From NCBI GenBank assembly GCA_016218255.1, contig JACREN010000044.1, positions 2,489-66,488 of the forward strand: 64,000 nucleotides of DNA. Direction: 5' to 3'. Of the stretch, positions 222 through 39,118 are shown piece after piece. Below the pieces are notes generated by a model. It had not been told where the DNA came from, did not search any database, and saw only the letters and a program-made list of their open reading frames with translations. This DNA is from Candidatus Gottesmanbacteria bacterium. Its GTDB lineage: Bacteria; Patescibacteriota; Microgenomatia; UBA10105; UBA927. A program made the translations under genes and the position numbers. How positions within the stretch are numbered: position 1 is the first letter of the stretch; every line of letters starts with the position of its first letter.

Positions 222-1349
222 TTAAGTCACGCCGAGCAGTTCGCGGATAGAATCGGAAACATACGCGACTTCGCGTTCGCCCAAACAAACACCGCTCGGT
301 AAATTTATTCCTGAATATGCAAGCTCATGCGATACAGAAGTGTTGAATTTTGGTTTTGGATAAATACCAAAATCACTTATGGGGTAAAAAAACGGCCGGG
401 TGTCAATATTTCGAAGCTTTAACGCTATTCGAAGTTCATCACGGCTCAGCCGAAATTTCTTTTCCATGACAATAGAAGTCATCCAATAACTGCTCCGAAC
501 ATCTGTCCTCTCGGGATTCATCGATAATCCTTCAATGGTCCCAAGTCTTGACTTGTACCACGAAAATATCTGCCTTTTTCTTGCTATCAAATCTTCAATT
601 TCTTCAAGTCTGGCCAATCCCAGAGCTGCCTGAATATTTGACATAGGATACATATACCCAATCTCATCATGCCAAAACTGACGCTTTGGATTAATTCCAT
701 GATCCACAAGCGATCTGGCTCTCTCAATCCAGGATTTTTTATTCGTTATCAGCATACCGCCTTCACCTATGGCCAGAAGCTTCGCCCCCTGGAAACTAAA
801 TGCTGCTGTGTCGCTTGTTACTCCTGCATGCTTCCCATTCAGAATACATCCTAACCCCTCGCACGCATCCTCAATGACATACAGTTTATATTTTTTTGCC
901 AACGCCCGTATACCACGCATATCCGCTACGTTTCCGTACAGATGCACCGGCATAATAGCCCGGGTTCGCCTGGTTATATACCGCTCGGCTTTTCTGACGT
1001 CAATGGACCATGTATCACGATCCACATCAACCAGTACCGGTCTGGCTCCCGTATACTGTACAGCATTCGCACATGCGATATAGGTAAAGTCTGGTATGAG
1101 CACTTCATCGCCGGGACCAACGCCAGCAAGAATAAGTCCCATATGAAGTGCACTTGTGCCTGTCGGCATCGCGAGAGCATACGAAGTCCCGACGTACCTT
1201 GCGAATGCTTCTTCAAATTTATATATGTAATCACTGTGATGGAAATTCCATCCATTTTTGGCCGCATCCGTCACGTAAGCTAATTCATGACGACTTATCT
1301 TGGGTCCGGCAGTCAGTATCATTTCGTTGGGCTTCTGCATGCGCTTCAT
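222..1349 (-). CDS. DegT/DnrJ/EryC1/StrS-family PLP-dependent sugar aminotransferase
   Basis: 375-aa ORF. It has the Gly-rich PLP fold signature 'AMPTGTSALHMGL' and the catalytic Lys in 'FSFQGAKLLAIGEGG'. Lys (not His) argues for an aminotransferase rather than an E1-type dehydrase. The real start may be the internal Met in 'MILTAGPK' near 1322. Confidence 0.85.
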   Translation of the reverse strand: MKRMQKPNEMILTAGPKISRHELAYVTDAAKNGWNFHHSDYIYKFEEAFARYVGTSYALAMPTGTSALHMGLILAGVGPGDEVLIPDFTYIACANAVQYTGARPVLVDVDRDTWSIDVRKAERYITRRTRAIMPVHLYGNVADMRGIRALAKKYKLYVIEDACEGLGCILNGKHAGVTSDTAAFSFQGAKLLAIGEGGMLITNKKSWIERARSLVDHGINPKRQFWHDEIGYMYPMSNIQAALGLARLEEIEDLIARKRQIFSWYKSRLGTIEGLSMNPERTDVRSSYWMTSIVMEKKFRLSRDELRIALKLRNIDTRPFFYPISDFGIYPKPKFNTSVSHELAYSGINLPSGVCLGEREVAYVSDSIRELLGVT

Positions 1350-2284
1350 AAATTGATGGTGTTCCGAATAATATATCGCGGCCGGCGCTTTACTTCAAGG
1401 AATATTTTTGCCAGGTATTCTGCTATCACGCTTAAACTCAAAAGCTGGACGCCTCCCAAAAATAAAATAAGAATCACGATAGTCGGTATCCCCCGCGGTG
1501 CATCGCGATAGACAATGATCATGCTTATATTGATTATTATAAGAACCAATGTCATGAGCATGACAAAAAATGCGGTTAATGATATCCATTCAAGCGGTTT
1601 AAATGAAAAATTGATAATGAGAGTTTTTGCCCACCAAAACCCGGACATGAGGGATTCATTTGATCTGCCGGCGTGGCGGGCATCCCTCACATAAGAAACG
1701 CCAATTTGGCGAAACCCCACATACGCCCGAAGACACCGGAGATAATAATCATATTCATCCATAGCCAGAAGCGCTTCCATGGGTTTTCGCCCTATAAGAG
1801 AAAACTCTCCTGCGTCAGGAGGAATGGGAAAATAGGCGAGTTTTTGAAGGAAAAAATAAAATCCCCGATACAGTACGTTCATAAGCGCAGTCGCGCCTCT
1901 TCGTTTCTTTCGTACTCCATAAACGATATCGTACCCCTTGCGCCAATGCAAAATAAATTCACGGATGAGCTCCGGCGGATCCTGTATATCTCCGTGCAAA
2001 AGTACCACTGCTTTTCCCTTCGCATACTGAAGTCCGGCCAAAAAACTTGGCTGGGGCGAACCGAAATTCCGGCTCATGACAATGACCTTTACGCGCCGAT
2101 CCCGCTGGCCAAGAGACGAAAAAATGCTTTCTGACCCGTCCGTTGATGCGTTGTCCACAAAAATAAGTTCAAATTCATACCCCGGTAGGGTTGCAATAAC
2201 CGATTTTACCCGAGTATACATCTCTCGGATATTTCCGGATTCGTTATAACAGGTTACAACAACTGATATAAGTGTTTTTCTCAT
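1346..2284 (-). CDS. Family-2 glycosyltransferase, polyprenol-phosphate sugar synthase type (ArnC/GtrB/DPM1-like) with C-terminal TM helices
   Basis: N-terminal GT-A motifs 'ISVVVTCYNE', 'VDNASTDGS' and 'HGDIQDPP', followed by two hydrophobic C-terminal helices. The ORF track gives 1346..2374. An internal ATG at 2284 ('MRKTLISVVV') gives an ATGA overlap with the upstream gene that ends at 2281. Confidence 0.8.
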   Translation of the reverse strand: MRKTLISVVVTCYNESGNIREMYTRVKSVIATLPGYEFELIFVDNASTDGSESIFSSLGQRDRRVKVIVMSRNFGSPQPSFLAGLQYAKGKAVVLLHGDIQDPPELIREFILHWRKGYDIVYGVRKKRRGATALMNVLYRGFYFFLQKLAYFPIPPDAGEFSLIGRKPMEALLAMDEYDYYLRCLRAYVGFRQIGVSYVRDARHAGRSNESLMSGFWWAKTLIINFSFKPLEWISLTAFFVMLMTLVLIIINISMIIVYRDAPRGIPTIVILILFLGGVQLLSLSVIAEYLAKIFLEVKRRPRYIIRNTINL

Positions 2285-3240
2285 CCGTATTTTTTGTACC
2301 AGGCCAATGTTTTCAAGATTCCTCCACGAAGTGAGTAGTGGGGCATCCACCCAAGATTTTTTATCTTTTCCCAATCAAGGTGCTGATAGGGTATTTCATT
2401 CTTCGAAGTGTTTGCGATAGAATATCGTATTCGCTTATGAAGAATTTTTTCGGTACGCTTAATGAGCTCAATAACTGAACACGACACTTCAGAAGATATA
2501 TTAAACGCCTGTCCTTTAATTTTTCCCATACGTTCTAGTAGAAATACATACGCTCTCGCCACATCACCGACGTAGATATAATCACGTATATATGTACCGT
2601 CGCTTCGTAACACCACAGGAACGCCATGGACCAGACTATTCATAATGCCGGGAATAATTCTACTATTATGCAGATCTCCCGGACCATAAATATTGCCAAA
2701 TCTTGTTATAGCTACAGGAACTCCGTATGTCTGCCAATATGCGTTAGCTATTAAATCAGCAGCGGACTTAGAGACTTCATATGGATGATCACCCCGAAGT
2801 GGATCATCCTCTCTGTAAATTTTTTTCAATTTACCATATGCTTTATCCGATGAAGCAAGTATCACGCCATGGACGCGCGGGGTACGGCGGGCAGCCTCAA
2901 GTATAGAAACCGAACCTAATACATTGGTCCGTATCGCTTCTGCTGGATTTTCATAGGACGTTGTCACGATAGCAGAAGCAGCCAAATGGATAATGCTGTC
3001 TATTTCATATCGAGTCACGACATCAATCACACGATCTGTATCGTTGACATCGCAATGCACACTAATCACTTTCTGATCGAGTTCTTTGGTGATAAAATAA
3101 CTATTAGGATCATGACTCCGGACAGTAGTAACGACTCTATATCCCCTTCCGAGAAGCAATTCAATGACGTGACCGCCGACCAAACCGGTTCCGCCAGTAA
3201 CCAGAACCGTCTGACCCGTCAATCGTTCCATATTTTCCAT
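2281..3240 (-). CDS. NAD-dependent extended-SDR sugar-nucleotide dehydratase/epimerase (CDP-glucose 4,6-dehydratase-like)
   Basis: Rossmann motif 'VLVTGGTGLVGGHV' and catalytic 'YEVSK' (YxxxK). It lies immediately downstream of a glucose-1-phosphate cytidylyltransferase, the usual partner of the CDP-glucose 4,6-dehydratase. Confidence 0.6.
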   Translation of the reverse strand: MENMERLTGQTVLVTGGTGLVGGHVIELLLGRGYRVVTTVRSHDPNSYFITKELDQKVISVHCDVNDTDRVIDVVTRYEIDSIIHLAASAIVTTSYENPAEAIRTNVLGSVSILEAARRTPRVHGVILASSDKAYGKLKKIYREDDPLRGDHPYEVSKSAADLIANAYWQTYGVPVAITRFGNIYGPGDLHNSRIIPGIMNSLVHGVPVVLRSDGTYIRDYIYVGDVARAYVFLLERMGKIKGQAFNISSEVSCSVIELIKRTEKILHKRIRYSIANTSKNEIPYQHLDWEKIKNLGWMPHYSLRGGILKTLAWYKKYG

Positions 3241-3998
3241 TTTGGGTCAGTTTTCCAATACATATTAAGGTTTTCTACATCCGAATATGTGTCCATCGAG
3301 TGCCAAAATCCGCTATGAATATACAGAGAAACCTGACGCTCCTTCACAAGGCGGTGGATTGCTGCGTGCTCATACTCCTCGGGCCGGAGGTAGTTAAAAA
3401 AACTTTTCTTAAATACCATAAAACCGCCGTTTACCCATTCGCGGAGAGACGGTTTTTCAATGAAATCGGTTACAATATTATTTTTATCAACCTTCACCTG
3501 ACCATATTTGCTTCGCGGGTATACACCGGTAATCGTTCCTATGGTATTCTGCTTCTTATGAAAAGAGACGAGTTTTGTGATATCGATATTTCCGACACCG
3601 TCACCGTATGTCACCATAAAATTATCCTCAGTAATATAAGGCTTAATACGTAATATCCGCTCCCCGGTCAGCGTCTCCTGACCGGTTTCAACAAATGTAA
3701 TATTAAAATCGTCAATCCGTTTGTCTTTCTTTCTCAAAGTATGAATTTTCGTTTTACCCGTTCTTGTCGAAAGCGTAAAATCATGCAAAAAATATTTCTG
3801 GTTTAGAAAATAGTCCTTAATCGCATCTCCTTTATACCCAAGAGCAATCACAAAATCTTTATATCCATAATGGGCATAAATTTTCATAATATGCCAAAGA
3901 ATCGGCTTATTGCCGATGGTGACGAGCGGCTTTGGCTTAAACTCCGTCTCCTCTTTTAAGCGGTAACCTATACCGCCGGATAATATTATTGTTTTCAT
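3219..3998 (-). CDS. rfbF: Glucose-1-phosphate cytidylyltransferase
   Basis: 259 aa. N-terminus 'MKTIILSGGIGYRLKEETEFKPKPLVTIGNKPILWHIMKIYAHYGYKDFVIALGYKG' matches the RfbF/DdhA nucleotidyltransferase signature over its whole length. Confidence 0.85.
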   Translation of the reverse strand: MKTIILSGGIGYRLKEETEFKPKPLVTIGNKPILWHIMKIYAHYGYKDFVIALGYKGDAIKDYFLNQKYFLHDFTLSTRTGKTKIHTLRKKDKRIDDFNITFVETGQETLTGERILRIKPYITEDNFMVTYGDGVGNIDITKLVSFHKKQNTIGTITGVYPRSKYGQVKVDKNNIVTDFIEKPSLREWVNGGFMVFKKSFFNYLRPEEYEHAAIHRLVKERQVSLYIHSGFWHSMDTYSDVENLNMYWKTDPKWKIWND

Positions 3999-6116
3999 CT
4001 AAAACAGATCTTCTGGATCCCCTCCGTGATACGGAAATAAAAAGAATATTCTAAATCGTCCGATCACAAATGTACTCTTATTGGCAATACTTTGCAACGG
4101 ACGGCGCTCAGTCAGACGCATATCACCCTCCACCTGATATTTGTTATGCGTTCTGGGTCCTTGAAAAAGTCTCGCAGTAGGCCCTTCATAGAAAAGCTGA
4201 GTGCCATACGGCGGATAGTCGCCAAAAAAATATGGCAGACTGCCCCCAGCAATTGCATTATTTTTCACGATAATCTGATTTTCCTTTTCAAGAAAGGTTC
4301 CTTGTATCGGAATCGCCAACCATTCGCGGAAATTCGGCCACGCGGCTGCTTCTGCCAAAGCATCCTCAACTCCAGCATACCCGCCTAATCGTGGCAATGT
4401 CCGCTGCCACTGGCGCACAGCACGTAAATCGACAGGAGACATCCGCATCATCATTGGAACCCGATCAAACAACTCCTGACCATTTAGCATGACAGTCAAA
4501 AACTGGGTTGCGTTCGGATCCTGTATATCCATGATCAGATACCCATTCAAATCACGCAACCTAGATAACGCTTCGTTTCCCAGGGTAATTTCCTGATGTA
4601 TTTCCTCTCCTTGATTCAATGGTTTCCGCCATTCATGCCAATTCCTGCTTCGTATCTCTGGCGCTATGACAATGGAAATATAGACAATGAGAACACTTGG
4701 TAAAAGTTTCTTCGCCCAGTGATGTGCAATAATAAGCTTTGCGTTGCGATCAATCTTCCAAAGCATCCTCAACGCCCATACAACAATTACTCCTGAGACC
4801 AAAAAATTCACGATCCGCCACACGCGACTGTCAGAAATTAACGGGATTATCCGAAGCTCAATTCCGAGAATATACGGGCCTAATAAAATCCATGACAAGA
4901 AGAGTCCGCACAAACTCAACACCGATTTTCTTGCTGATTGATAATTCCAAAGAAACCGTAACTCCTCTATGCCCGCACCTGCCAACAGCAGTAAAATTCC
5001 CAATACGGGCATCTGATATCGAATTTCCTCCACATAATATAAAGACACGAATACCGTATTCCACAGAATCATTGAACTTATGAGAAGCATAAATCTATGA
5101 CGAAGGGCCGCCCTCGTACCCCACGCTGCCAAAAAAAGTATGCCCGCATGAAGCAGCTGAAGACTCCGCTGGTCCGCAAACGGAAAACTCGTCGCATATG
5201 AATTTGCAGCGTGCCGCCACAACCGGCTTACTCGTTCAAGCTCCAATATAAACAATGAAGCCATATTCTGACGCAATAGTAATCTGGAAAACATATCCAT
5301 CCATCCGGATACTTTGATACCATCCATCCACCATCCGTCTGTTGCCAGCGTATGAGCGTTCATGAATGTACTCGCTATACCGCCAACGCCATAAATACTT
5401 GTGCCGGTAAATGTAAGCATTGCGTTCCATGCAATGACCGGTATTGCGTACCCAGCAATCAGACCATATAGATTTTTTCGCTTGATAGTTCTGTCCATTA
5501 ATAATGGTAGACCGATAAAAAGCATCCCATAATAAGTAAAAACATGACGGATCAAACCCATAATAAATAAAATGAATCCGGCGCCAACGAACCAATAGAG
5601 ATGTTTTTTCCGTAATACAATCCAACTTATGGCAAATACGGTAAGCTGCAACGCTACACCCGTTATCTGTTCCGGCATCCACGAATAGATAAACGCGAAA
5701 AACGGCGTATAAAATGCTCCGACCAAGCCTACAGCAAGCGCAATCCATAGTGGGAACAGCTTCAAGGCGGTCAAAAATAATGCTGATACGAATCCCGCGT
5801 TCAAAATTGGAGCCACGTCGCGTGGTGTCCATTTGGCATTTTCCAGTACCGCAACGTATACGTTATAAAGCGGAGACCCATGCGTGTTTGCACCGGCAAA
5901 ATTATGCTTCAGCGCAGCTATGAATGCGGATTGTTCCTCTATCACAAGTGATCCCACGGCAATGCGCCAAAGGTTGTTTACGGCTATCGCGGCGAGTCGA
6001 TACTCCTTTGCATCTGAAGGTTCGTTATAATCTCCAGTCGCTACAAATTCCAGCCGCACCTGGTATGCAATCCAAAAAAGAAAAAGTGTTATTCCAAGGA
6101 TCAGTATTTTTTTCAT
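3999..6116 (-). CDS. GT-C-type glycosyltransferase, ArnT/PMT-like (GT39/GT83 superfamily)
   Basis: 705 aa with an N-terminal TM helix. The first loop carries an acidic motif 'SDAKEYRLAA' resembling the ArnT 'DExRYA' motif. It also has a 'HGSPLY' element, about 10 predicted TM helices and a C-terminal soluble domain of about 230 aa. Confidence 0.55.
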   Translation of the reverse strand: MKKILILGITLFLFWIAYQVRLEFVATGDYNEPSDAKEYRLAAIAVNNLWRIAVGSLVIEEQSAFIAALKHNFAGANTHGSPLYNVYVAVLENAKWTPRDVAPILNAGFVSALFLTALKLFPLWIALAVGLVGAFYTPFFAFIYSWMPEQITGVALQLTVFAISWIVLRKKHLYWFVGAGFILFIMGLIRHVFTYYGMLFIGLPLLMDRTIKRKNLYGLIAGYAIPVIAWNAMLTFTGTSIYGVGGIASTFMNAHTLATDGWWMDGIKVSGWMDMFSRLLLRQNMASLFILELERVSRLWRHAANSYATSFPFADQRSLQLLHAGILFLAAWGTRAALRHRFMLLISSMILWNTVFVSLYYVEEIRYQMPVLGILLLLAGAGIEELRFLWNYQSARKSVLSLCGLFLSWILLGPYILGIELRIIPLISDSRVWRIVNFLVSGVIVVWALRMLWKIDRNAKLIIAHHWAKKLLPSVLIVYISIVIAPEIRSRNWHEWRKPLNQGEEIHQEITLGNEALSRLRDLNGYLIMDIQDPNATQFLTVMLNGQELFDRVPMMMRMSPVDLRAVRQWQRTLPRLGGYAGVEDALAEAAAWPNFREWLAIPIQGTFLEKENQIIVKNNAIAGGSLPYFFGDYPPYGTQLFYEGPTARLFQGPRTHNKYQVEGDMRLTERRPLQSIANKSTFVIGRFRIFFLFPYHGGDPEDLF

Positions 6117-9055
6117 TGTATCCGCGCAGAATAAACTTCAAGGCTTGAAGGATTCGGAGAGCCGACAACGATAATCTTCCGTAAAATGCTGCCGCTGCAA
6201 TCTAATGCGGTCTGAACCGTTTGTCTTCCATGCTGAAGCGGAAATGAACGAAAGTGCCAAAGCCCCCCAATTAATGTCTTTTGGTTTTGATTCTGTTTAC
6301 TCCAGTCCGCATCCTCCGCGCACACCCAGGCAAGCAACATGGTTTTGTACCGAATAAGCGATGACAATGTTTCCTGTATCGAAAAATCGTTCACATAATG
6401 CCAATTGACCCCCGCAAGTTCAAATATCTTATCCGGAGAGTATTGTCTATTGCTAACCGGCTCAATAACGATCTCATCAAGCGATACAGGTGCGGAAGGA
6501 GTCTGCGTAATAACAATCTTCACCGAACGGTATATTCCAGGTATTACCGTCACCGCATGCATTCCGCCATTATTCGGGCTCCAAGAAATCTTTGTATCCT
6601 CACCTATGCGCCCTATCTTTACGTATGATTCTCCGTAACGCGATCCGTAGACTACGCCCTCTAGCGGCATGCGTTCACTTACCATATTTTTCGGTGTATT
6701 GAGCAATATTCTCCCCACATCTGTAGATTCCGCAAAAGAAAGTATTATCTCTATCGGCAAATTATTGTTTCCTAAATAAAATATTTCATCTGGAGCAGGT
6801 GATGGATCGGAAACAAATACTCCATCGATCAACGATTGCGCACGCACCCGCGCATCGGTTTCATCCAGGCCGGATACAGATGCCCGAATCCCCTGTCGAA
6901 TCAAATCAACCTTCTGGATAGCACGATTGATTTGTATCCGGTCATCCAAATTTATTTCTCCCAGTAGACGATCCTGAAAAGACAGCACAGTGAATGAAGA
7001 AAGGATTTCCTGGATGCTCCTTGCAGCTATCGGCGCGTATTCCTTTATCATCCACCAGAATTGTCCCGGTACGCGAGCTTCTTTTGGAATGATTACCGCA
7101 TCGGAAAATGGAAATTGAACATCCGGCAAAATATTCTGACCGAGAGAAATTTCCAACATCGTTGGCAGGAGCAATCTTTCCCCAATTTCACGGCTTGTAA
7201 GCATCGGGCGCTTTGCCAAATAGAGGGTTCCGTTCGTGTCTATTTTCGTAAATTCCGTCTCGGAAACGGCTTCTTCAAAGACGATGGGTACCGGTATAGA
7301 ATTCTCTTTTTCAAAGAAGATTCTTCTCGCCATCCCGGAAATATTCGCAAACACTGACGTCTCAGGATTAGCATAAAAAGCAAAAAACCTGTCCTTCGTA
7401 TATATGCCGGATTCTATAAGATTGCGGATCTCCCGGACATCATTGCTATAAAATAACTCATCCGTTCGATAAAATCCGTATAGCCACCGCCAGCCGGCAA
7501 CATTGACATCAAGTGCATTCCGGACGGGATTTACGGAATAGATAAGCTTCGGCTTTCCGTCGCGGGGAACCATAGCAAAAAATTTATCGATCAACGCCCT
7601 CTCTTTATTACTGATACCCTCAACTATGCCCCGATGACCCTGAATACTCACCATGCTATTCCCCATCAACACGACGAGAGTTACTATCCATCCGACACGA
7701 CCGAATACGATTCCTTTTTTGCCCCAAAGCCAATAAAGACCCACGCCAAACAGCGTACTCACGCCCACAGCGGCAGCAAAAACATATCTCGCTCCCGGGC
7801 CATACGGAGGTGTTATGCGGGAAAAATAAAACGGAAAAAACAATAAATCGCTTTTTGTAGTGATGTAAAGCGGGACGTAAAACATACTGCTCAAGATCAA
7901 TACGACAGAAAAAACAAGAATTTTCGTCACCCAATGCTGGTTTTTCAACCGAAACAACGCGAGAAAACCGATAATAATAAAGCCGATTAAGGACACCAAT
8001 CCGATCCCATATATCAAATACTGCTCAATAAATGGATTTAACACCAGACTTCCGATCCACATCCGCATGGATGGAAAAGCGCCAATAGCATTTGGCATCA
8101 CCAGTTGAGCCATATAATATGCCAAACGCTCGCTGTAGATATCCCATCGGAACGGAGACGCAACCACAACATTGCTCTTCTTCAATACTCCCTCAAGTAC
8201 TGCAGACCATCCGCCTGGAATAAGACGGATTCCGATAAATCCAAGCCACACCAATCCGATCCCAAAGCTCTCTCCCAGACGCATTATAATGCTGCGTTTC
8301 CGCTTTGCTGGCATCCAGAGGATCGCGAAAAGTCCGAACACCAAACCGGCAATCCGTACAAAACCCATTTTGACTGAAGCGATAAAAAATAGTAATGAAA
8401 GCAGATAATATATACTCGCGCGTTTTTGGGAGTAGCGATAAAGAAAAATAAATGAAAGTATATGAAGACCTAATACCAATGGCATACCCTGGGCATTAGC
8501 CTGCCATGAAAACACATCCAAAAATACCGGTGTAGTGGCAAAATACAATGAAGAAAGGAGTGCAATACTTTTTTTATTACTTATGACAAATACTAAAAAA
8601 TATAAACTCACAGCGGCAAAAATAAACCAAAAAAGAGAAACAATATTGTAGAACCACGCATTTGTACCGAACAAAAGATAAGAAAGTACAAATGACGCGA
8701 ATGGATAGCCGTTTATAATGTAATGGAACGGAAAACCTGCAGCGCCATTAGTAACGGGCGTTAATATAGAAGAGCTGTCTTCGGCAAAAAAATAGTAGCG
8801 GAGAATCAATCCGTGCGCGATAACACCTGCAGTCAGTAGTATTCCAATCTGGATCTTATGCTGAGAAATAGTTCTTGCTATCGGGCGAACGAGGTTGCTT
8901 TGCAATAAAAAAATAACGGCTATCACCATTGGCAACGATTGATCTATCACATAGCTCCACCCGACTCCGATTCGGGACTCAAGCCAAACGTAAAGTCCCG
9001 CATTAAAACTCATTATGCTGTAAAAAATTGCCGCAATAATCCACATTAGCGTCAT
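6113..9055 (-). CDS. Large polytopic membrane protein with a C-terminal extracytoplasmic domain of about 500 aa (GT-C-like, function unknown)
   Basis: 980 aa. The N-terminal ~480 aa are strongly hydrophobic with many helices; the C-terminal half is soluble. It has a 4-nt overlap with both flanking genes. Confidence 0.5.
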   Translation of the reverse strand: MTLMWIIAAIFYSIMSFNAGLYVWLESRIGVGWSYVIDQSLPMVIAVIFLLQSNLVRPIARTISQHKIQIGILLTAGVIAHGLILRYYFFAEDSSSILTPVTNGAAGFPFHYIINGYPFASFVLSYLLFGTNAWFYNIVSLFWFIFAAVSLYFLVFVISNKKSIALLSSLYFATTPVFLDVFSWQANAQGMPLVLGLHILSFIFLYRYSQKRASIYYLLSLLFFIASVKMGFVRIAGLVFGLFAILWMPAKRKRSIIMRLGESFGIGLVWLGFIGIRLIPGGWSAVLEGVLKKSNVVVASPFRWDIYSERLAYYMAQLVMPNAIGAFPSMRMWIGSLVLNPFIEQYLIYGIGLVSLIGFIIIGFLALFRLKNQHWVTKILVFSVVLILSSMFYVPLYITTKSDLLFFPFYFSRITPPYGPGARYVFAAAVGVSTLFGVGLYWLWGKKGIVFGRVGWIVTLVVLMGNSMVSIQGHRGIVEGISNKERALIDKFFAMVPRDGKPKLIYSVNPVRNALDVNVAGWRWLYGFYRTDELFYSNDVREIRNLIESGIYTKDRFFAFYANPETSVFANISGMARRIFFEKENSIPVPIVFEEAVSETEFTKIDTNGTLYLAKRPMLTSREIGERLLLPTMLEISLGQNILPDVQFPFSDAVIIPKEARVPGQFWWMIKEYAPIAARSIQEILSSFTVLSFQDRLLGEINLDDRIQINRAIQKVDLIRQGIRASVSGLDETDARVRAQSLIDGVFVSDPSPAPDEIFYLGNNNLPIEIILSFAESTDVGRILLNTPKNMVSERMPLEGVVYGSRYGESYVKIGRIGEDTKISWSPNNGGMHAVTVIPGIYRSVKIVITQTPSAPVSLDEIVIEPVSNRQYSPDKIFELAGVNWHYVNDFSIQETLSSLIRYKTMLLAWVCAEDADWSKQNQNQKTLIGGLWHFRSFPLQHGRQTVQTALDCSGSILRKIIVVGSPNPSSLEVYSARIQ

Positions 9056-10458: not shown

Positions 10459-10498
10459 TGTACAAAAGGGGTATTCATTTTACAATCAAACGGAATCT

Positions 10499-11332: not shown

Positions 11333-12016
11333 TGAGGCGATCGTATAAGATATAAACATTGGAATGAATCTTGATTTGCTTTCTCCGTAAGGACGGTTAC
11401 GGTAATATACCGGAATTTCATAAAATGTGCCTCCCGCTTGTTTCACTTTTGTTATTAGCCGCATAAAATAATCTCCATACCCGGCAAATAATCCGGCATC
11501 CGAATTTCCGAGTGAAAGGATAAATTTCCGGTCAACACAAAAAAATCCGCTTAAAAAATCAGTAACAGGAAGATGGAATAACAGTCGAAGATATATATTA
11601 AAAAATCGGCTGAGCCAATACCGTCGCGAGTTCTCCATACCGCCACCGGTAATATACCGCGATCCAATAGCAAGTGTTGCTTTTCGACAAGCCTCACCAA
11701 GCTTCGGAATCACAGATGGATCATGGCTCAAGTCTGTATCCATTACCACGACCTGTTTACCCCTGGCTTTCTGAACACCAAACCATATTGCAGAAGCCAG
11801 TCCCCGCTCTTTTTTTCTGACGAAAACCCGAACTGAACGTTTTCCTCTAAACGCATGTTTACATACCACAGCAGTACCATCAGGACTGCTATCGTCGACA
11901 ACGATAGCTTCATATTTCGCTTTCGCAAACAATGCAGTACGAAAAATGCTCTTTATGAGTGGGATAATATTGCCTTTTTCGTTATAAGTTGGAAGAATAA
12001 CGGAAATATCGATCAT
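11294..12016 (-). CDS. Family-2 glycosyltransferase, DPM1-like polyprenol-phosphate sugar synthase (soluble form)
   Basis: 240 aa with motifs 'ISVILPTYNEKGNI', 'VVDDSSPDGT' and 'VMDTDLSHDP', which are DPM1/Ppm1-type. Its 3' end overlaps the formyltransferase 3' end convergently by 39 nt. Confidence 0.8.
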   Translation of the reverse strand: MIDISVILPTYNEKGNIIPLIKSIFRTALFAKAKYEAIVVDDSSPDGTAVVCKHAFRGKRSVRVFVRKKERGLASAIWFGVQKARGKQVVVMDTDLSHDPSVIPKLGEACRKATLAIGSRYITGGGMENSRRYWLSRFFNIYLRLLFHLPVTDFLSGFFCVDRKFILSLGNSDAGLFAGYGDYFMRLITKVKQAGGTFYEIPVYYRNRPYGESKSRFIPMFISYTIASLKLRGTDELPKR

Positions 12017-27484: not shown

Positions 27485-27491
27485 TGCACCC

Positions 27492-29273: not shown

Positions 29274-29648
29274 GGCAAATGTATCAGGTTTGGCCTGATC
29301 AAGGGGCTCATTCACAAACGCGAGAAGAAACATTTCTCCCTGGCCGATATTTTCCAGCTTATGCGCGACACCAGCAGGCACAGCGACCATGGTCGGTTTA
29401 TCTCCACTGACCACAACCTCCTCACGCTCATGCGTTTTCAAATCTTCAAATGAAATTTTTGCTTTCCCTTTAATAATGAGAAACCATTCTTGTTTTTTAG
29501 TATGAAAGTGCTGACCGCGTACAACCCCTTTCTTCGAATATGACACAAAGAAATGCTTCATCGCGCGGGATAAAAACGGATATTCGTTCTGTACGAGCCA
29601 GCCGCGTTCATCACGCCGAACTTTCAGAGGATACGTATCTATTTTCAT
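29262..29648 (-). CDS. Cupin sugar-nucleotide 3,4-ketoisomerase-like protein (FdtA/WxcM-C-like)
   Basis: 128 aa with 'ERGWLVQNE' and 'VRGQHFHTKKQEWFLIIKGKAKI', containing the His pair typical of FdtA-type isomerases. Confidence 0.65.
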   Translation of the reverse strand: MKIDTYPLKVRRDERGWLVQNEYPFLSRAMKHFFVSYSKKGVVRGQHFHTKKQEWFLIIKGKAKISFEDLKTHEREEVVVSGDKPTMVAVPAGVAHKLENIGQGEMFLLAFVNEPLDQAKPDTFASAI

Positions 29649-32282: not shown

Positions 32283-33355
32283 AACGTATTATAAAAAAAA
32301 TCGACAACAACGTCACTTGGCCGACTCGTAACTTGCTTGTGACGGCGTAGTCTCCTGTACGAATTCAAAAACCAAACAACTCTCCTCATTTCCAACTTCG
32401 ACAAGTAAGCAGTCTCCCCAATGCCAATATCCTGTTCAATAACTTCTCTTAAAATAAGCATTGGAGTATTGAGAACAAACGTTTCTGTCTGCAACCCACC
32501 GCTGTCAGAAGCTACAAACTGACTGTGTCTGACTGCATGCATAAAATCAACATAATCAAAAAGATAACTGGTAACGAGCGGAAACTTACGTTTTAGCTCC
32601 AATATAGTCTGCCAAACTCCCTGCTTTTTAAGCTCAAAAACAGTATTGGTATGGATCGGCCATATGACGATAAACCCTCGGCGCAAAATTTCCTCCAATA
32701 TTCGGATAATGCGATGCAACCTTTCTTTGTTGAATAAATTTTCTTTTCTATGAAACGTAATGAGTACATATTTTTTTCCAAAAAATTGCTTTATCTTATT
32801 TGACGGTGGTCTTTGCAAAGCCAGTCTCGCCGAATCCAACGCCGTATTTCCGTTGGTAATGAAAATACTCTGCTTTCTCTTGATTGTGTCTGCGTCTCTC
32901 TGATATGGACAAAAACTAATATCGCTATACCTGGATACGACCGTTCGGGTAATCTCCTCAGGAAATGGTTCAAAAAAATTCCAACTGCGAATTCCGGACT
33001 CCAGATGCACGATGCGCGCACCAAACCATTTTGCAATGAGAAAACCCAAAATAGTTGACTCTGCGTCTCCATGGATAAGAACGTAATCATGTTTGGTTAT
33101 AGGAAGCTTACGCGCATTCCACAGCACATGAGGCGCCCAACACAACAGTTCCCAGATATTTGCAAGGTCCCTTTTTTTCATCGTCAGGTAGATATCCGGC
33201 TTGCGAATTCCCAATCTTTTTCTGGTATTTTCTATGATATGATAATGTTGACATATATGTATAAACTGATAGGGTACCCGACGCTTATCAAGCCCCTGCA
33301 TAACAGGAAACGTCTTCATGAATTGTCCCTTTGTGCCGATGAGTATATATATCAT
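32279..33355 (-). CDS. UDP-N-acetylglucosamine 2-epimerase family protein, second copy; a hydrolysing NeuC/LegG-like role is possible
   Basis: 358 aa with 'IVHLESGIRSWNFFEPFPEEITR' and 'FVASDSGGLQTE', which are epimerase_2 motifs. Confidence 0.65.
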   Translation of the reverse strand: MIYILIGTKGQFMKTFPVMQGLDKRRVPYQFIHICQHYHIIENTRKRLGIRKPDIYLTMKKRDLANIWELLCWAPHVLWNARKLPITKHDYVLIHGDAESTILGFLIAKWFGARIVHLESGIRSWNFFEPFPEEITRTVVSRYSDISFCPYQRDADTIKRKQSIFITNGNTALDSARLALQRPPSNKIKQFFGKKYVLITFHRKENLFNKERLHRIIRILEEILRRGFIVIWPIHTNTVFELKKQGVWQTILELKRKFPLVTSYLFDYVDFMHAVRHSQFVASDSGGLQTETFVLNTPMLILREVIEQDIGIGETAYLSKLEMRRVVWFLNSYRRLRRHKQVTSRPSDVVVDFFYNTL

Positions 33356-35352
33356 AATTTCTCTATTCCCTTAGGTCCATAAACACGAACTTGAATATAG
33401 GAAAGTATACAAGAAAGGAAATCGTTTGGAACGATATCGATCATTCGTGCCATTGTAGCCGGAAAAAAATAATACCATGTATTTGGCTTAAAATAAAATT
33501 TTTGATATTGCCCATAGATGCTTTTGAAAAACCGCATATCCTCCTCCATTCTTATTAAGTTCTCCCCATCAGCAATATATTGTACCCCGCCGTCATCCGC
33601 TTTGCTACAGTCCAACGTGTTGTGATCGACCTCTATTCGCGTTATTATTCTTAATCTGTCGAGACGAATTTTTATAAATCCTTCGTTTCGACCGCCTGTG
33701 ATGTCCACATTTGGAATAATCATCTCATTTGAAAGTTCAGGTTTAAAATATGTCGCCTCATTTTTCCAAATTTTCAAAACGGGTATGCCTTCAACGCTGA
33801 TTATATCGACTGGATTCATCATTTGATTTAAATAGAGAAAGTTATATCGCGGCGGCGGAAAATCTACCGACACCATTTCCATCATGTATTCCCCCTCATG
33901 TCTTAATGCAGAAAAATATGCACCAAATCGTATATCCTTCCGGATATACTGCCCTGGAATATTCGAAAGCAGCCCAACAGGCAAACCGACTCGGGCGTTC
34001 TGTTCTGCATGTTTATTAAGCCACCTGATGCCCTGCAGATATACATTTCCCATGGATTCCGCGGCTCCGGGAATCTTGTGTGCAACCGCACCGGATACAC
34101 CGCCAATCAGACTATTAAGAAATAAATTCTCATTCGGATGCATGCGCATCATCGTCAAAAGCGTTGGGACAAACAATAATACAATGACGACCGAAGAAAA
34201 AAATCTGCGCCCTGTTATTTTCACTAGCACTTCTCTACATATATGTGCGCCAAACCCTGTCAACAATACAAGAGCAGGTAAGTATTCCAAAATCTGCCTG
34301 ACGCCGCTATAAATGGATGCGCCCGGCCACATCACCCGCACGATCGGCACGCATAACCAAAATACCACCAGCCAGACAAACCGGCTCTTCTCCTTAAAAC
34401 GACCAGTCAATACTCCAACAAATCCAACAACCGCAAAAAGCAAAGAAACCAGCGGCGTTGATATAACGACAAAAAAGGGTGGATACATATTCCACCCGTA
34501 AAAAAGAAACGACGGCTGATTGGCATTGCCCGTACCTATTCCCTTGTAATACATGATTGTATCCCGCAGTCTTCCGATCGGATCAGACCAAAGATATGGC
34601 CAGGACGAGTAAAAAATCAAAAAAACGATAGCAGGAAAAAGCAAAAAAGACAAAATCATTCTCCGTGTAAAAAAGCGCGTTGGCCGGCAAATAATAAGAT
34701 AGGGCAGCAGCATAAAAGGAACAAAAACAATATTAAATTTTGTTGATAAAGCTAATCCGCATAAAAACGCAGACCACAGCAGCAGAGACGCTTTATTTTT
34801 CGTTATCCCGAGGTAAAAAAAATATACAGTTCCGGCAAAAAATGCGGTTTCTACCGGATCTTTGATATTAAAGCGTGATTCTCCCAAAAAAAGTGGGTAA
34901 AGGGCAAGGGCTAGGGCCGCGATACCTCCAGCAAACGCCCCAAGCGTGTCCCGCCCCATCACAAATACAAGAAACACCAATAAACCGGCAACAAGTACTT
35001 CAAACGCGTGATATGATTCCAAATCTCCCATAATTCCCAACTTCTCATAAAGTATCCGGTTGCTTAATGCAGCAATAATTCCGTTTAGAGCTGGATGCCC
35101 ACCGTCATTTTTCAGAAAATATTGCCCATTGTATTGCTGAATCTTCCATGCGCTTACTCTCGGTCCAATCAAATTCGATGGACGGTAAGAATACTGGCCA
35201 GTCGTCAATAAGTGTAAATATGCCTGACCACGAATAAAATGAATCGGCTCATCAATATTGATGCCGTAATCAGAAAGCGTCGCAACACCCACAACAAAAA
35301 AAACCATCGCTATAATTATTCCCCCAAAATACCGGATTATAAAATTTTTCAT
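33352..35352 (-). CDS. GT-C-type glycosyltransferase, PMT/ArnT-like, paralog of 23336..25387
   Basis: Motifs 'GINIDEPIHFIRGQAY' and 'DGGHPALNGIIAAL', with the same length and architecture as the paralog. The ORF track extends to 35397. The ATG at 35352 gives an ATGA overlap with the GT4 gene ending at 35349. Confidence 0.55.
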   Translation of the reverse strand: MKNFIIRYFGGIIIAMVFFVVGVATLSDYGINIDEPIHFIRGQAYLHLLTTGQYSYRPSNLIGPRVSAWKIQQYNGQYFLKNDGGHPALNGIIAALSNRILYEKLGIMGDLESYHAFEVLVAGLLVFLVFVMGRDTLGAFAGGIAALALALYPLFLGESRFNIKDPVETAFFAGTVYFFYLGITKNKASLLLWSAFLCGLALSTKFNIVFVPFMLLPYLIICRPTRFFTRRMILSFLLFPAIVFLIFYSSWPYLWSDPIGRLRDTIMYYKGIGTGNANQPSFLFYGWNMYPPFFVVISTPLVSLLFAVVGFVGVLTGRFKEKSRFVWLVVFWLCVPIVRVMWPGASIYSGVRQILEYLPALVLLTGFGAHICREVLVKITGRRFFSSVVIVLLFVPTLLTMMRMHPNENLFLNSLIGGVSGAVAHKIPGAAESMGNVYLQGIRWLNKHAEQNARVGLPVGLLSNIPGQYIRKDIRFGAYFSALRHEGEYMMEMVSVDFPPPRYNFLYLNQMMNPVDIISVEGIPVLKIWKNEATYFKPELSNEMIIPNVDITGGRNEGFIKIRLDRLRIITRIEVDHNTLDCSKADDGGVQYIADGENLIRMEEDMRFFKSIYGQYQKFYFKPNTWYYFFPATMARMIDIVPNDFLSCILSYIQVRVYGPKGIEKL

Positions 35353-36413
35353 ACAGATAATAAAACCCCTAACGCCTTCCGGGCCGCCAGATTCCAACTT
35401 CTTCTTTTTGCCTGAACAAGTGCGCCCATCTGCAACACTCTGTATAACTTCTTATCCTGTAATACACGAATCGCTTCACGAGCAAGTGAATCTGGATTCG
35501 GCGCAGTTAGTATGCCGCTCGTTCCATCCATTACGACATCCCGTACTCCCGATACATTATATGCAATCGTTGGGGTACGCACGAGTCCGGCCTCACTCAC
35601 CACCAACCCCCAACCCTCATGAATAGAAGGAAATAAAAGCAAATGAGCCTTTGCCAAAAAGGAAAATTTCTTTGTTTCAGATACCTTACCAAAAAAACGC
35701 ACCGAGTTTTTTCTCCAATGTGATTTTATCGGTCCTTCACCAATCACCCAAAAGTTGGCTTCTGGAAAATGATTTTTGACAAGATCAAAAGCCAATAGAG
35801 CGTCCTCCGTACCTTTTTGTTTATTGATTCTCCCCAAATACACCAACGTTGGATTATTTTCTTTTTTTGTTTTTGGTAGATGTCGAGGCATATCTACACC
35901 CAATGGAATAACTGTAATTCCTCGATCATTGAACCCTTCAGCGATAAGATCGTCCTTTGTTGATTTTGAAATTGTTATAGTCGGAACATTTCGGTACAAA
36001 TAGAAATATATTCTTTCAATCCAACGTCCCAATGCAGCCAAGGGCTTAGGAAACAAAACCGGAAAAAGTTTTTTGGCTACTTCACACGCCAAAAGTACTG
36101 TCTTATTACCTGCATAGAATACTGCAAAAAATGGATACCAATGCACTTCATCTATTACTACATCTGTAGCTTTTTTGAATCGAAAAAAATAATACCAAAC
36201 TGCCAATGCATGCACATTCCACCATCGGCCTCGCCGAAATATTCTCACCCCGTCAATATATTCATCGGGCAAACTTCCCCGATAACCGGCACAAAAGACA
36301 GTAACACTATGTCCCCAGATCACCCAGCGCTTTGCGAGTTCATGCGTGAGTCTTTCAGCACCCCCACCAGCCGGATTTTTGATATCACGCCAATTGAGAA
36401 TGAGGATTCGCAT
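35349..36413 (-). CDS. GT4 (GT-B fold) glycosyltransferase
   Basis: 354 aa with 'MRILILNWRDIKNPAGGGAERLTHELAKRW' and C-terminal 'LFPSIHEGWGLVVSEAGLVRTPTIAYNVSG'. Confidence 0.75.
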   Translation of the reverse strand: MRILILNWRDIKNPAGGGAERLTHELAKRWVIWGHSVTVFCAGYRGSLPDEYIDGVRIFRRGRWWNVHALAVWYYFFRFKKATDVVIDEVHWYPFFAVFYAGNKTVLLACEVAKKLFPVLFPKPLAALGRWIERIYFYLYRNVPTITISKSTKDDLIAEGFNDRGITVIPLGVDMPRHLPKTKKENNPTLVYLGRINKQKGTEDALLAFDLVKNHFPEANFWVIGEGPIKSHWRKNSVRFFGKVSETKKFSFLAKAHLLLFPSIHEGWGLVVSEAGLVRTPTIAYNVSGVRDVVMDGTSGILTAPNPDSLAREAIRVLQDKKLYRVLQMGALVQAKRRSWNLAARKALGVLLSV

Positions 36414-36419
36414 GGGACT

Positions 36420-37280
36420 TTAGCCAATATTAATGCGGAAATTTAGCTCCGGATCATATCGCCATTGCTGACTGTTTAAATTGTCGTAGTACCGTAAAAT
36501 TTTCAGCCGATAAAATACAGCCGCGGTATCCCACAGCATATGATAAATAATATTCCATAAGTTAGCGGATGTAATGCTAGAAGCTCCCGAAAAATCCAGT
36601 TCAACCGGCGCTTCAAAAATCCGACGATACCCTAAATGATGCGCCACTGCCAAAATTTCGATATCAAAGGCAAACTCTTTCACCAACAGCCTCGGCAACA
36701 CATCCTCTAGAACCTTCCGCCGAAAAAGTTTCATTCCCACTTGTGAATCACGGATGTTAAGACCAAACATAACACGTACTACCATTTGATACCCCCACGA
36801 CAACAGCGTTCGGGAAAAAGGATAATGCACTTTTGATACCGGATGCCTCTTGCTTCCGATAATAATATCCGCGTTGTACCAGCGGTAATGTTCCAAAAAC
36901 ATGGATACCCCTTCTGCCCGAATATCGCTTCCGGCATCCAAAAATGCAATCACATCACCCTTGGCTCTGGCCATACCGTAACGCACCGCATATCCCTTTC
37001 CGTGATTATGCTCATATCCTACGACGACGATATGTTTTCTGACAAGCTTACGTGCCCGCGCATATGTCTGATCCTCTTTTCCATCCACAACCACAATGAG
37101 TTCATAGGGAATTTTTATATGCACAAGAGATGCATCAATTTGCCGGATATCTTGCTCTATGCTCTTTGACTGTTTATAAGCGGGAATGATAACGGAGAGC
37201 AATTTTGGATCGTGCTGCATAGGCGTAATATAGCAAAAGCACGCCCAAAAGAGAAGCTGTAACAGCCAATGATACACCAA
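36420..37280 (-). CDS. Family-2 glycosyltransferase
   Basis: 'LSVIIPAYKQSKSIEQDI', 'VVVDGKEDQT' and 'FLDAGSDI'. Its 5' end overlaps the upstream flippase gene by up to 107 nt, so the start is uncertain. Confidence 0.7.
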   Translation of the reverse strand: MVYHWLLQLLFWACFCYITPMQHDPKLLSVIIPAYKQSKSIEQDIRQIDASLVHIKIPYELIVVVDGKEDQTYARARKLVRKHIVVVGYEHNHGKGYAVRYGMARAKGDVIAFLDAGSDIRAEGVSMFLEHYRWYNADIIIGSKRHPVSKVHYPFSRTLLSWGYQMVVRVMFGLNIRDSQVGMKLFRRKVLEDVLPRLLVKEFAFDIEILAVAHHLGYRRIFEAPVELDFSGASSITSANLWNIIYHMLWDTAAVFYRLKILRYYDNLNSQQWRYDPELNFRINIG

Positions 37281-38430
37281 TCACATTTGCAAGTGTACTA
37301 TGAAAAAACCATATAACGCTCGCCTGAGCAACCGCAGCAACGGGCATAAAAAATATCGGAGTTGCTTTGTGCGCACCGAAATAAAACATGGTCACTACAT
37401 TGACGAGGGCGCACACAGACAAAAATAAACCAAACATCGGCAAATAAGACGCAGCACTTACGTATTTTGCTCCGATAAGAGCCCGGATTACAATTTCTGG
37501 AAACATCCAATATACGAAACTGATCCCGCCAGCCAATAGTGCGGTAAGGCCGAGACTATAAAGAAACATCTTATGATATCCGTCTCCCTTTGCGTAGGCC
37601 GCAGACACCAAAGGCAGCATGGTATTGGCAATCGGCGCCGATCCGAAATAAATAATTTTTCCCAGCACGGATAGCGCGGCATACGTACCTGCTTCACCAG
37701 GTAAAAAATGTCTCACTAGAACAACATCAACATTAAAAAAGGCGATCATGCTCATGGTCATAATAAAGCTAATCACCGACTCGCTCCCTATTCTGCGCCA
37801 ACCTATATCCGCGGCAACCACGGAACGAGACATATTCTTTTCGATGACAATTAACGTGTATAAGTATGTAAAAACTCCGGCAAGCACAAATGCTCCAAAA
37901 GCGCCGGTTGACCCCCAACCAACCAATACTGCCAATATCCCCAATGCCAATTTTCCATAAGACTCAATTACATTCGCGACTACCAATTCAAAAAATTTAG
38001 AAATTCCCTGAATAATACTCCTATTCAAAATCTGCAGAAGTCCAAAAAACAATGCGATATCCAAAAATACAAAACTGCCGAATGAAGAAATATGCAAAAA
38101 GGATAAAACAGGTCCCGAGAAAATCAAAAAGATTATACCCCCAATGACCAGTATTTTCCAAAAATACGCCGTCAGCCGGTAATAGAGAAAATTTATTTTT
38201 CCGTGCTCTCCGAATCCCGCAAATTGAGCCACAAATTTGACCATCATCATATTCAGCATCACCAACGGAACTGTTATGATATTGGACAACGAAATCAGAC
38301 TCTGGAGAATGCCGTATTCAGAGGGCGGCAACATGCGGCCAACCAGCAAGTGGTATAGATATGCTCCTGACTGAGCAGCGAAAGCGCCGCCAACCATTAA
38401 CACATTCGCATGAATAAAATCCTTCTTCAT
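37174..38430 (-). CDS. Wzx/MOP-superfamily oligosaccharide (lipid-linked glycan) flippase-like membrane protein
   Basis: 418 aa with about 12 TM helices. The N-terminus 'VGGAFAAQSGAYLYHLLVGRMLPPSEYGILQSLISLSNII' is typical of polysaccharide-biosynthesis flippases. Confidence 0.6.
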   Translation of the reverse strand: MKKDFIHANVLMVGGAFAAQSGAYLYHLLVGRMLPPSEYGILQSLISLSNIITVPLVMLNMMMVKFVAQFAGFGEHGKINFLYYRLTAYFWKILVIGGIIFLIFSGPVLSFLHISSFGSFVFLDIALFFGLLQILNRSIIQGISKFFELVVANVIESYGKLALGILAVLVGWGSTGAFGAFVLAGVFTYLYTLIVIEKNMSRSVVAADIGWRRIGSESVISFIMTMSMIAFFNVDVVLVRHFLPGEAGTYAALSVLGKIIYFGSAPIANTMLPLVSAAYAKGDGYHKMFLYSLGLTALLAGGISFVYWMFPEIVIRALIGAKYVSAASYLPMFGLFLSVCALVNVVTMFYFGAHKATPIFFMPVAAVAQASVIWFFHSTLANVIGVSLAVTASLLGVLLLYYAYAARSKIALRYHSRL

Positions 38431-38434
38431 GTTA

Positions 38435-39118
38435 TCAGGTAAATCTGTATCGGATTAGTGTCCATAATGCGGCGATTCCATCTCTCCATGTCAGCTTCTT
38501 TCCTTCAGAAAATTTTCGTCCGTAATATGAAATAGGCACCTCATAGATCTGATAACCCGCCTTTAGAGTTTTTGCAGTAAATTCAGGCTCAAAATCGAAC
38601 CGCTTCGAACAAATGGTAATTCCCTCTAATACTTGACGGCGAAATACTTTATAGCCTGTTTCCATATCCGTAATATTTGTGTTATAAAGCACATTTGTCA
38701 TAAGAGTAACAAACTTATTACCCATCATATATAGATACATCGTGGACAAATGCGGCCCCAAAAATCGTGATCCATATACCACATCGACTCGAGCGTCATG
38801 GAACGGTTCCAATAGTTTCTCGTAGTCATCTGGGCTATATTCCAAATCCGCATCTTGAATAAGAATAATATCACCAATAGCCTCCACGAAGCCCAATACC
38901 AAGGCCGCACCCTTTCCATTATTGATAGGCGCGTGTATCACATCGCACCGCTTCTCCCATTTTTTTAATATCTCGCCCGTACCATCAGTCGATCCATCAT
39001 TCACTACAATGATTTGCTTCTTCCAGTCTGATAGTTTTTTTGAAAAAACCGCAGACAAAATTTTATCAATGGAAAACGCTTCGTTATAGACTGGTATAAT
39101 AATAGAAACTGTTTTCAT
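38435..39118 (-). CDS. Family-2 glycosyltransferase, DPM1-like polyprenol-phosphate sugar synthase (soluble form)
   Basis: 227 aa with 'VSIIIPVYNEAFSI', 'VVNDGSTDGT' and 'IQDADLEYSPDD'. Confidence 0.8.
   Translation of the reverse strand: MKTVSIIIPVYNEAFSIDKILSAVFSKKLSDWKKQIIVVNDGSTDGTGEILKKWEKRCDVIHAPINNGKGAALVLGFVEAIGDIILIQDADLEYSPDDYEKLLEPFHDARVDVVYGSRFLGPHLSTMYLYMMGNKFVTLMTNVLYNTNITDMETGYKVFRRQVLEGITICSKRFDFEPEFTAKTLKAGYQIYEVPISYYGRKFSEGKKLTWRDGIAALWTLIRYRFT

Follow-up and report, generated by a model that had tools for sequence, protein, structure and literature searches.

Polyprenol-phosphate glycosyltransferases (Pren-P GTs) of glycosyltransferase family 2 (GT2) carry a DADLQ-type motif, D-A-D-L-Q-[DNH], in which the first Asp is the putative base and the third Asp and the Gln bind metal (PMC12690121). 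The acceptor phosphate is contacted by R117, R131, and S135 in PfDPMS and by R122, R125, and K132 in GtrB, and the donor phosphate by R202 and R197, respectively (PMC12690121, PMC12698845); residue roles in ArnC, PfDPMS, and GtrB are taken here from these two studies. In Haloferax, AglJ initiates a glycan linked to dolichyl phosphate (DolP), and AglR and Agl15 are Wzx-like flippases (PMC3871713). In the Arn pathway, ArnB, the ArnA formyltransferase domain, ArnC, and ArnT together aminate a sugar, N-formylate it, load it on polyprenol phosphate (Pren-P), and transfer it with a C-type glycosyltransferase (GT-C). We compared these systems with a 64-kb window, the whole stretch of DNA analyzed, from a metagenome-assembled genome (MAG) of Candidatus Gottesmanbacteria, of the candidate phyla radiation (CPR). 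With 43% GC, the window appears as a cluster for cell-envelope glycans and consists almost wholly of a single minus-strand array of glycan genes. It probably encodes four nonorthologous GT2 enzymes of the Pren-P GT class, at 1346-2284 (minus strand), 11294-12016 (minus), 22465-23415 (plus), and 38435-39118 (minus), whose activity we infer; they are named below by their lowest coordinate. Functions in what follows rest on homology, predicted structure, and gene association.

Pfam and NCBIfam profile scans covered all open reading frames (ORFs) of the window of at least 150 aa. An earlier note on this DNA had named four distinct GT2 genes, and all four were found at the positions and on the strands it gave, each with a full-length PF00535 match (E-values of 1e-28 to 1e-34). 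Only one start was misplaced. The gene listed as 1346..2374 is real, and that interval is a maximal TTG ORF; the NCBI protein, 100% identical, has 312 aa and starts at 2284. Kyte-Doolittle profiles agree with the transmembrane (TM) pattern described in the note, with two C-terminal TM segments in 1346 and 22465 and none in 11294 and 38435, and the quoted motifs are present as QDADLEYSP in 38435 (the DADLxxxP pattern) and MDTDLSHDP in 11294. The four proteins are mutually 24-31% identical, in pairwise alignments that span 190-324 residues, whereas alignments with two control GT2s (20984-21859 and 48369-49130, also in the window) are confined to the N-terminal ∼100 residues.

In HMMER searches, the best PDB relative of each of the four is a Pren-P GT and the whole catalytic domain is covered. 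The 312-aa protein of 1346 is predicted to be of GtrB type (5EKP, 197 bits, residues 6-308) and the 316-aa protein of 22465 of ArnC/GtrB type (ArnC 9HWJ, 159 bits, residues 9-297). Alignments of these two long proteins pass through the juxtamembrane (JM) regions and continue through the TM hairpin. For the two short proteins, the predicted types are DPMS for 11294 (240 aa; PfDPMS 5MLZ, 99 bits, residues 3-217) and AglJ/DPMS-like for 38435 (227 aa; PfDPMS at 66 bits and ArnC at 58 bits, residues 3-206). The control GT2s match chondroitin/heparosan synthases and GmaR over their N-terminal ∼100 residues only and, as judged from these matches, are of another GT2 type than the four. The top NCBIfam models are PgfS for 1346 (223 bits), ArnC for 22465 (169 bits), and AglJ followed by PpgS for 38435 (109 and 69 bits). 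Models of processive synthases and of transferases for undecaprenyl-diphosphate (Und-PP) glycans (PgaC, NodC, WcaA, PglI, and EpsD) score lower and match the N-terminal ∼100 residues. By the same comparisons, none of the four genes is orthologous to a characterized enzyme.

A neighbor-joining tree (224 columns, 100 bootstraps) was built from family representatives, three PDB references taken out of HMMER alignments, and, as a thin outgroup, both in-window controls. In it, GtrB joins the 1346 family (bootstrap of 100), PfDPMS joins the 11294 family (87), and ArnC joins the 22465 family (70). The 38435 family grouped with that of a neighboring GT2 gene, 36420-37280 (71). All four families sit apart from the controls. 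The class proposed in the earlier note is thus supported, and clustering with processive or ordinary nucleotide-sugar transferases, which the note had set against its own proposal, was not seen. In the alignments, the donor-phosphate Arg (equivalent to R202 of PfDPMS) is present in all four proteins. Their metal/donor motif is the canonical DADLQD in 22465 (in MDADLQDDP), DADLEY in 38435, DTDLSH in 11294, and HGDIQD in 1346. Both AlphaFold2 (AF2) models, those of the short proteins, have interface helices after beta5 and beta7 and superpose on ArnC/DPMS over 230-260 columns. In the window, a GT-C gene adjoins or faces every one of the four. Once flipped, the Pren-P-linked products would be consumed by GT-C enzymes outside the membrane, a scheme in which we infer every activity step.

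Gene 11294 is the short enzyme closest to PfDPMS, to which its catalytic domain is 30% identical, and it has equivalents of D89, D91, R117, R131, S135, and R202. The counterparts of the three acceptor-phosphate residues (R120, R132, and S136) and of R202 are invariant in 27 homologs, while the position of Q93 is Ser in 11294 and varies among Asn, Ser, and Gln in the family. Its AF2 model (pLDDT of 86) matches the PfDPMS fold with a template-modeling score of 0.68, and the first 25 Foldseek PDB matches are only to DPMS, ArnC, and GtrB. Helices 130-147 and 217-233 of the model are at juxtamembrane/interface positions. PfDPMS differs in having four TM helices, all missing from 11294, which ends after the second interface helix as human DPM1 and PpgS do. 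Another difference from DPM1/Ppm1 is that no gene for a small membrane partner of the DPM2/3, Rv3632, or GacJ type was seen.

The surroundings of 11294 point to a modified amino sugar. As the earlier note had it, the gene lies directly downstream of a DegT-family aminotransferase gene (12013-13107, minus strand; Pfam DegT, E-value of 9e-125), and the pair shares a 4-nt ATGA start/stop overlap (12013/12016). The unit is headed by a gene for a predicted PMT_2 GT-C (13104-14486, minus; Pfam PMT_2), which has a paralog at 9052-10458 (phmmer, 229 bits); the three successive genes are joined by 4-nt overlaps. Convergent with 11294, and overlapping its 3' end by 39 bp, is a gene for a putative sugar N-formyltransferase (10499-11332, plus) that is ArnA N-domain/Fmt-like (Pfam Formyl_trans_N; NCBIfam ArnA, 113 bits). 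We examined 80 loci of the 11294 family, one genome per species, counting neighbors within 6 kb. The loci span Chloroflexota, Patescibacteria, Planctomycetota, Nitrospirae, and a Methanoperedenaceae archaeon, as well as MAGs labeled 'delta proteobacterium' and 'Gammaproteobacteria'. Of the 80 loci, 56 have a DegT homolog near the GT2 gene; in 54 it lies upstream and shares the strand of the GT2 gene, and in 22 it is within 150 bp. A formyltransferase is present in 15 and a GNAT acetyltransferase in 16, and 29-31 carry one or the other type of acyltransferase. GT-C clusters of GT87-, YfhO-, or PMT_2-like proteins are found in 53 of the 80, and 70 have one or more large polytopic ORFs. Conservation of DegT and acyltransferase genes nearby argues against GDP-mannose as the donor. 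The sugar loaded by 11294 would be an amino sugar with an N-formyl group, for subsequent transfer by the neighboring GT-C (13104-14486).

With its GT-C, DegT aminotransferase, Pren-P GT, and formyltransferase genes, the module at 14486-10499 resembles the Arn pathway in its logic, by analogy of predicted steps. A further likeness is that 22465 is the closest sequence relative of ArnC itself. There are also differences. The GT2 of the module is the 240-aa, TM-less DPMS type and not the ArnC type. Window proteins stay below the equivalog cutoffs for ArnC and ArnB, the scans of the window found no ArnE/F or small EamA/SMR-type pair, and in 11294-related loci a GNAT protein takes the place of the formyltransferase about as often as the latter is retained. 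To our knowledge, this CPR organism has no lipid A.

The 1346 gene is embedded in a putative sugar-nucleotide operon in the order glucose-1-phosphate cytidylyltransferase, 4,6-dehydratase, GT2, DegT, and GNAT. The cytidylyltransferase-like gene (3219-3998, minus strand) matches TIGR02623 of NCBIfam over its full length with 264.5 bits (cutoff of 300) and has orthologs of 69-70% identity in two related contexts (L082 and L083). Next is a gene for a predicted NDP-glucose 4,6-dehydratase of the short-chain dehydrogenase/reductase (SDR) family (2281-3240, minus), with NCBIfam scores of 183 bits for dTDP-glucose and 175 bits for CDP-glucose dehydratase and with syntenic orthologs at 49-56% identity; its stop overlaps the start of 1346 by 4 nt. 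The earlier note had 1346 following the DegT-family sugar aminotransferase gene at 222-1349 (minus; Pfam DegT, E-value of 1.5e-105). The two are adjacent, with a 4-nt ATGA overlap, but their order is the reverse because on the minus strand the DegT gene is downstream. An ortholog of the latter, 63% identical, is in the equivalent position in L082. The last gene is predicted to encode a GNAT N-acetyltransferase and is cut by the window edge, so that its 5' part alone (1-218, minus) is inside; in an overlapping Logan contig (L086), the gene after DegT encodes a 220-aa Acetyltransf_3 protein.

These features recur in the 1346 family. DegT is no more than 5 kb away in six of seven contexts, and a nucleotidyltransferase and a dehydratase adjoin in five, where the orthologs are 49-70% identical. 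Further genes in some contexts are formyltransferase, RfbH-like, thiamine pyrophosphate-dependent, or transketolase-like, as is typical for unusual sugars that are dideoxy or branched. Gene neighborhoods thus suggest that the 1346 and 11294 enzymes load unusual modified amino sugars, and conserved synteny of both families with DegT gives independent support to the earlier note, which had proposed that amino sugars are loaded on the lipid carrier. From the operon, the sugar loaded by 1346 would be an amino-dideoxyhexose with an N-acetyl group, its activated form probably being a CDP sugar. NCBIfam does not discriminate the sugar, because LegC-, PseC-, WecE-, and ArnB-like models all score the DegT and SDR proteins of the window at 200-370 bits, below their cutoffs. 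Fusion proteins occur in the wider 1346 clade: of 150 representatives, at least 12 join an SDR to the GT2 and two join a GT87 (GT-C) domain to it. Such fusions support physical coupling to donor synthesis and to GT-C use. Four relatives of 1346 (P0363, P0364, P0368, and P0372) have the GtrB-like domain fused to an N-terminal domain that is either GT87-like and polytopic or an SDR epimerase/dehydratase.

Compared with GtrB (Synechocystis sll0501; 5EKP/9NYC) and the PgfS/CsbB type, 1346 can be aligned from the GT-A domain through both JM helices to the two-TM hairpin. It retains equivalents of D96, Q98, R122, R125, and R197 of GtrB, with conservative changes at D157 (Glu) and K180 (Arg), and differs at K132 (Met) and at the gate residue W207 (Glu). 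Its gene is in the operon described above and not beside gtrA/gtrC, and its donor is probably not UDP-glucose. Another difference is in the motif LHGDIQDPP, which does not fit the 'DADL' pattern. The proposed catalytic base of GtrB, D94, is replaced by His, and HGD is kept in 117 of 120 homologs of 1346. Among the 150 nearest representatives at 50% identity, Asp is at that position in 108 and His is confined to the clade of 1346. Two 2025 studies call the first Asp of DxD universally conserved and favor it as the catalytic base (PMC12690121, PMC12698845). The HGD clade bears directly on the current debate addressed there over which residue acts as catalytic base in GtrB and ArnC, and, if true, a clade-wide His in place of the first Asp would be a natural test of the catalytic base in Pren-P GTs.

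Gene 22465 is predicted to encode a canonical ArnC/CsbB-like enzyme. Arg, Lys, and Ser occupy its acceptor-phosphate positions, and the donor-phosphate Arg is also there. Its closest relatives, found in diverse metagenomes, share 44-50% identity with it. The gene for a YfhO-like protein frequently follows theirs (14 of 41 loci of at least 6 kb), an arrangement like that of CsbB-YfhO systems; elsewhere the enzyme would often be partnered with a YfhO-type GT-C. In the window, 22465 is convergent with a gene for a predicted PMT_2 GT-C (23336-25387, minus strand; Pfam PMT_2), a paralog of 33352-35397. Directly upstream of 22465 is a gene for a DUF5667 protein (21865-22449, plus); another is at 47857-48372 (minus), and each protein has one N-terminal TM segment.

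Gene 38435 belongs to a family that is ∼70% identical over more than 120 Patescibacteria clusters. Its AF2 model (pLDDT of 82) superposes on ArnC over the whole chain (template-modeling score of 0.77, root-mean-square deviation of 3.1 A), has helices 128-145 and 211-226 at interface positions, and has only DPMS, ArnC, and GtrB as its first 16 Foldseek PDB matches. The gene is part of a block (35349-44039, minus strand) that is headed by a polytopic protein and has the same gene order in four other CPR genomes (L087-L090), with identities of 30-70% per gene: YfhO-like GT-C, GT4, GT-C, GT2 (38435), Wzx/MOP-like transporter, GT2 (36420), GT4, and PMT_2. The GT-C gene directly upstream of 38435 (39123-40226, minus) has a Pfam PMT_2 match, and its homologs (46-48% identity) carry Mannosyl_trans2. 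The transporter gene (37174-38430, minus) encodes a protein with 12 TM segments that Pfam itself does not match; homologs in syntenic positions, 30-50% identical, have PF01943 (Polysacc_synt) or PF13440 domains, making it a candidate flippase. Thus 38435 would be a CPR-wide, highly conserved AglJ/DPMS-like enzyme beside a Wzx-like flippase and GT-C genes.

The other GT2 gene of the block, 36420-37280 (minus strand), is always just after the Wzx-like gene and is 56-66% identical across CPR genomes. Its product is DPMS-related, with PfDPMS as its best PDB relative (59 bits), and was considered as a fifth synthase. We rejected it despite its relatedness to the clade: a degenerate motif, D[AS]G[SG]D[IL] (DAGSD in the window), replaces DADLQ and is kept in four orthologs, and the donor-phosphate Arg (R202 equivalent) is absent.

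Several observations weigh against the assignment of the four genes to Pren-P GTs and of two of them to amino-sugar loading. All NCBIfam scores fall well short of the equivalog cutoffs: 1346 scores 223 of the 500 bits set for PgfS, 22465 scores 169 of 529 for ArnC, and 38435 scores 109 of 325 for AglJ and 69 of 370 for PpgS. The metal-binding Gln of DADLQ is Ser in 11294 and Glu in 38435, 1346 has His where the motif begins with Asp, and in 38435 equivalents of R117 and R202 can be placed while those of R131 and S135 are not alignable. The two short proteins have no TM segments. Synteny with DegT is an association and not proof, and one context of the 1346 family (L084) has no sugar genes. We know of no precedent for a GtrB-type enzyme that uses a CDP sugar. 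The scans of the window found neither an ArnA/UDP-glucuronic acid decarboxylase domain nor an ArnD-like deformylase (polysaccharide deacetylase). There is also no GtrA-like or small activator gene in the window, nor any GtrA-sized ORF. A check for GtrA-like flippase genes had been recommended in the earlier note and found none among window ORFs or in the only intergenic gaps (1-221, 27124-27491, 29274-29644, and 63231-64000), which contain the 5' end of the GNAT gene, a cupin, and, ahead of a carbamoyltransferase gene, two small hydrophobic ORFs.

By analogy with AglJ, 38435 may not make a monosaccharide donor but start an oligosaccharide linked to Pren-P. The initiated polyprenol-monophosphate glycan would be extended by 36420-37280 and two GT4 enzymes, flipped by 37174-38430, and transferred by GT-C. 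AglJ is the best NCBIfam model for 38435, AglJ and AglR/Agl15 are a precedent (PMC3871713), and the GT4/GT-C/GT2/Wzx-like/GT2/GT4 block is kept in four other CPR genomes. As around AglJ, AglR, and AglS of Haloferax volcanii, a Wzx-like transporter, soluble glycosyltransferases, and a GT-C are nearby, and the profile scans found no phosphoglycosyl transferase in the block or the window. Conversely, 38435 is bacterial, has 227 aa without a C-terminal membrane part, and scores far below the AglJ cutoff; no AglB-type oligosaccharyltransferase was identified around it. A phosphoglycosyl transferase may be encoded elsewhere in the genome, the GT4 and GT2 neighbors could serve another acceptor, and Wzx-like proteins also flip Pren-P-monosaccharides (AglR, DolP-Man). 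We regard a role of 38435 as initiator as possible but rather doubtful. It is unlikely, by our estimate, that CPR of this group build and decorate envelope or protein glycans wholly on polyprenol monophosphate, in haloarchaeal style and without a phosphoglycosyl-transferase initiator. Under such a scheme, the AglJ-like GT2 would start, GT2 and GT4 enzymes would extend, the Wzx-like protein would flip, and GT-C would transfer the glycan, with the three further Pren-P GTs supplying lipid-linked N-acyl amino-dideoxy sugars, one of them from a CDP-activated donor, to ∼15-20 GT-C.

We consider it improbable that one or both short enzymes, 11294 and 38435, glycosylate not polyprenol phosphate but another phosphorylated or glycan acceptor, such as a Pren-PP-sugar or, as GpgS does, a soluble phospho-metabolite. 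The missing TM segments and the loss of the DADLQ Gln in both proteins would fit such a role. GpgS and MpgS rank right after Pren-P GTs in both fold searches, and for 11294 NCBIfam alone hardly separates Pren-P GT models from EpsD (53, 52, and 50 bits). However, the top structural and sequence matches are all Pren-P GTs, 11294 keeps the acceptor-phosphate Arg/Arg/Ser triad and both helices at JM positions, and most related loci have GT-C neighbors. Pren-P GTs that lack TM segments are also known, as in human DPM1, PpgS, and GacI. That the four are ordinary GT2s, processive or elongating Und-PP-oligosaccharides, with DegT nearby only through a shared glycan operon, fits their common PF00535 domain, their generic NCBI names, and the mixing of glycosyltransferase and sugar-synthesis genes that is common in glycan operons, but is highly improbable and already largely refuted here by the lower, N-terminal matches to PgaC, NodC, WcaA, PglI, and EpsD, the different behavior of the two true generic GT2s of the window, the placement of all four with DPMS, GtrB, and ArnC in the tree and fold searches, and the DegT synteny of the 11294 family across phyla.

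Cell envelopes of CPR/Patescibacteria are little known, and these bacteria need surface contact with hosts. The cluster offers four clonable candidates for synthases of lipid-linked sugar donors, together with GT-C consumers. Two of the families reach beyond CPR, to Chloroflexota, Planctomycetota, Nitrospirae, and Methanoperedenaceae, and a module of aminotransferase, N-acyltransferase, Pren-P GT, and GT-C recurs that is uncharacterized. This suggests that Arn-like extracytoplasmic decoration with amino sugars is far more widespread than lipid A modification. A search of the open-access literature found nothing relevant on this cluster or on an Arn-like module outside proteobacteria, which is weak evidence of novelty.

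The remainder of the window is also rich in glycan genes. In total, it has seven GT2, four GT4, and three DegT aminotransferase genes. Sugar-nucleotide routes include a CDP/dTDP-glucose 4,6-dehydratase, FnlA/WbcJ/WecB-like enzymes, and a PseB/PseC/acetyltransferase/2-epimerase set, and there are formyltransferase, carbamoyltransferase, and methyltransferase genes. Of 21 polytopic membrane proteins, 14 have sequence support as GT-C (nine PMT_2-related, four YfhO/PTPS-related, and one MptA_B-related through a homolog) and two have weak matches (Dpy19 and ALG3), so the earlier count of about 20 GT-C is more than the sequences support. The twelve-TM protein is the Wzx-like transporter and not a GT-C, and it is the sole flippase candidate in the window. 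The polytopic proteins at 3999-6116, 6113-9055, 42795-44039, and 46742-47860 had no Pfam hits at relaxed thresholds and therefore cannot be called GT-C. Four sets of GT-C paralogs (50719/53313/54932, 41213/49127/59290, 9052/13104, and 23336/33352) indicate repeated local duplication. Pfam found no phosphoglycosyl transferase of MraY/WecA or WbaP type, ABC transporter, or Wzy-type polymerase in the window, despite the presence of four GT4 and three GT2 genes of non-Pren-P type.

Some features touch none of these subjects. Two halves of a WbcJ/FnlB-type UDP-4-keto-sugar reductase, one an SDR and the other a WbuC-like cupin, are encoded ∼8 kb apart (20172-20987 and 29262-29648, both minus strand), and each half-gene adjoins a different UDP-GlcNAc 4,6-dehydratase gene. 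A GH130-like protein (beta-mannoside phosphorylase family; 15262-16173, minus) is encoded inside the biosynthetic operon, and its gene overlaps a methyltransferase ORF (14489-15394) by ∼130 nt, indicating that one start codon is probably misplaced. On the plus strand, two small hydrophobic ORFs of 56 and 98 aa overlap in different frames (27120-27484) upstream of a gene for a NodU/CmcH-type carbamoyltransferase (27492-29273). Next to these small ORFs, a gene at 25354-27123 encodes a GDSL/SGNH protein of 589 aa that begins with a TM segment near its N terminus.

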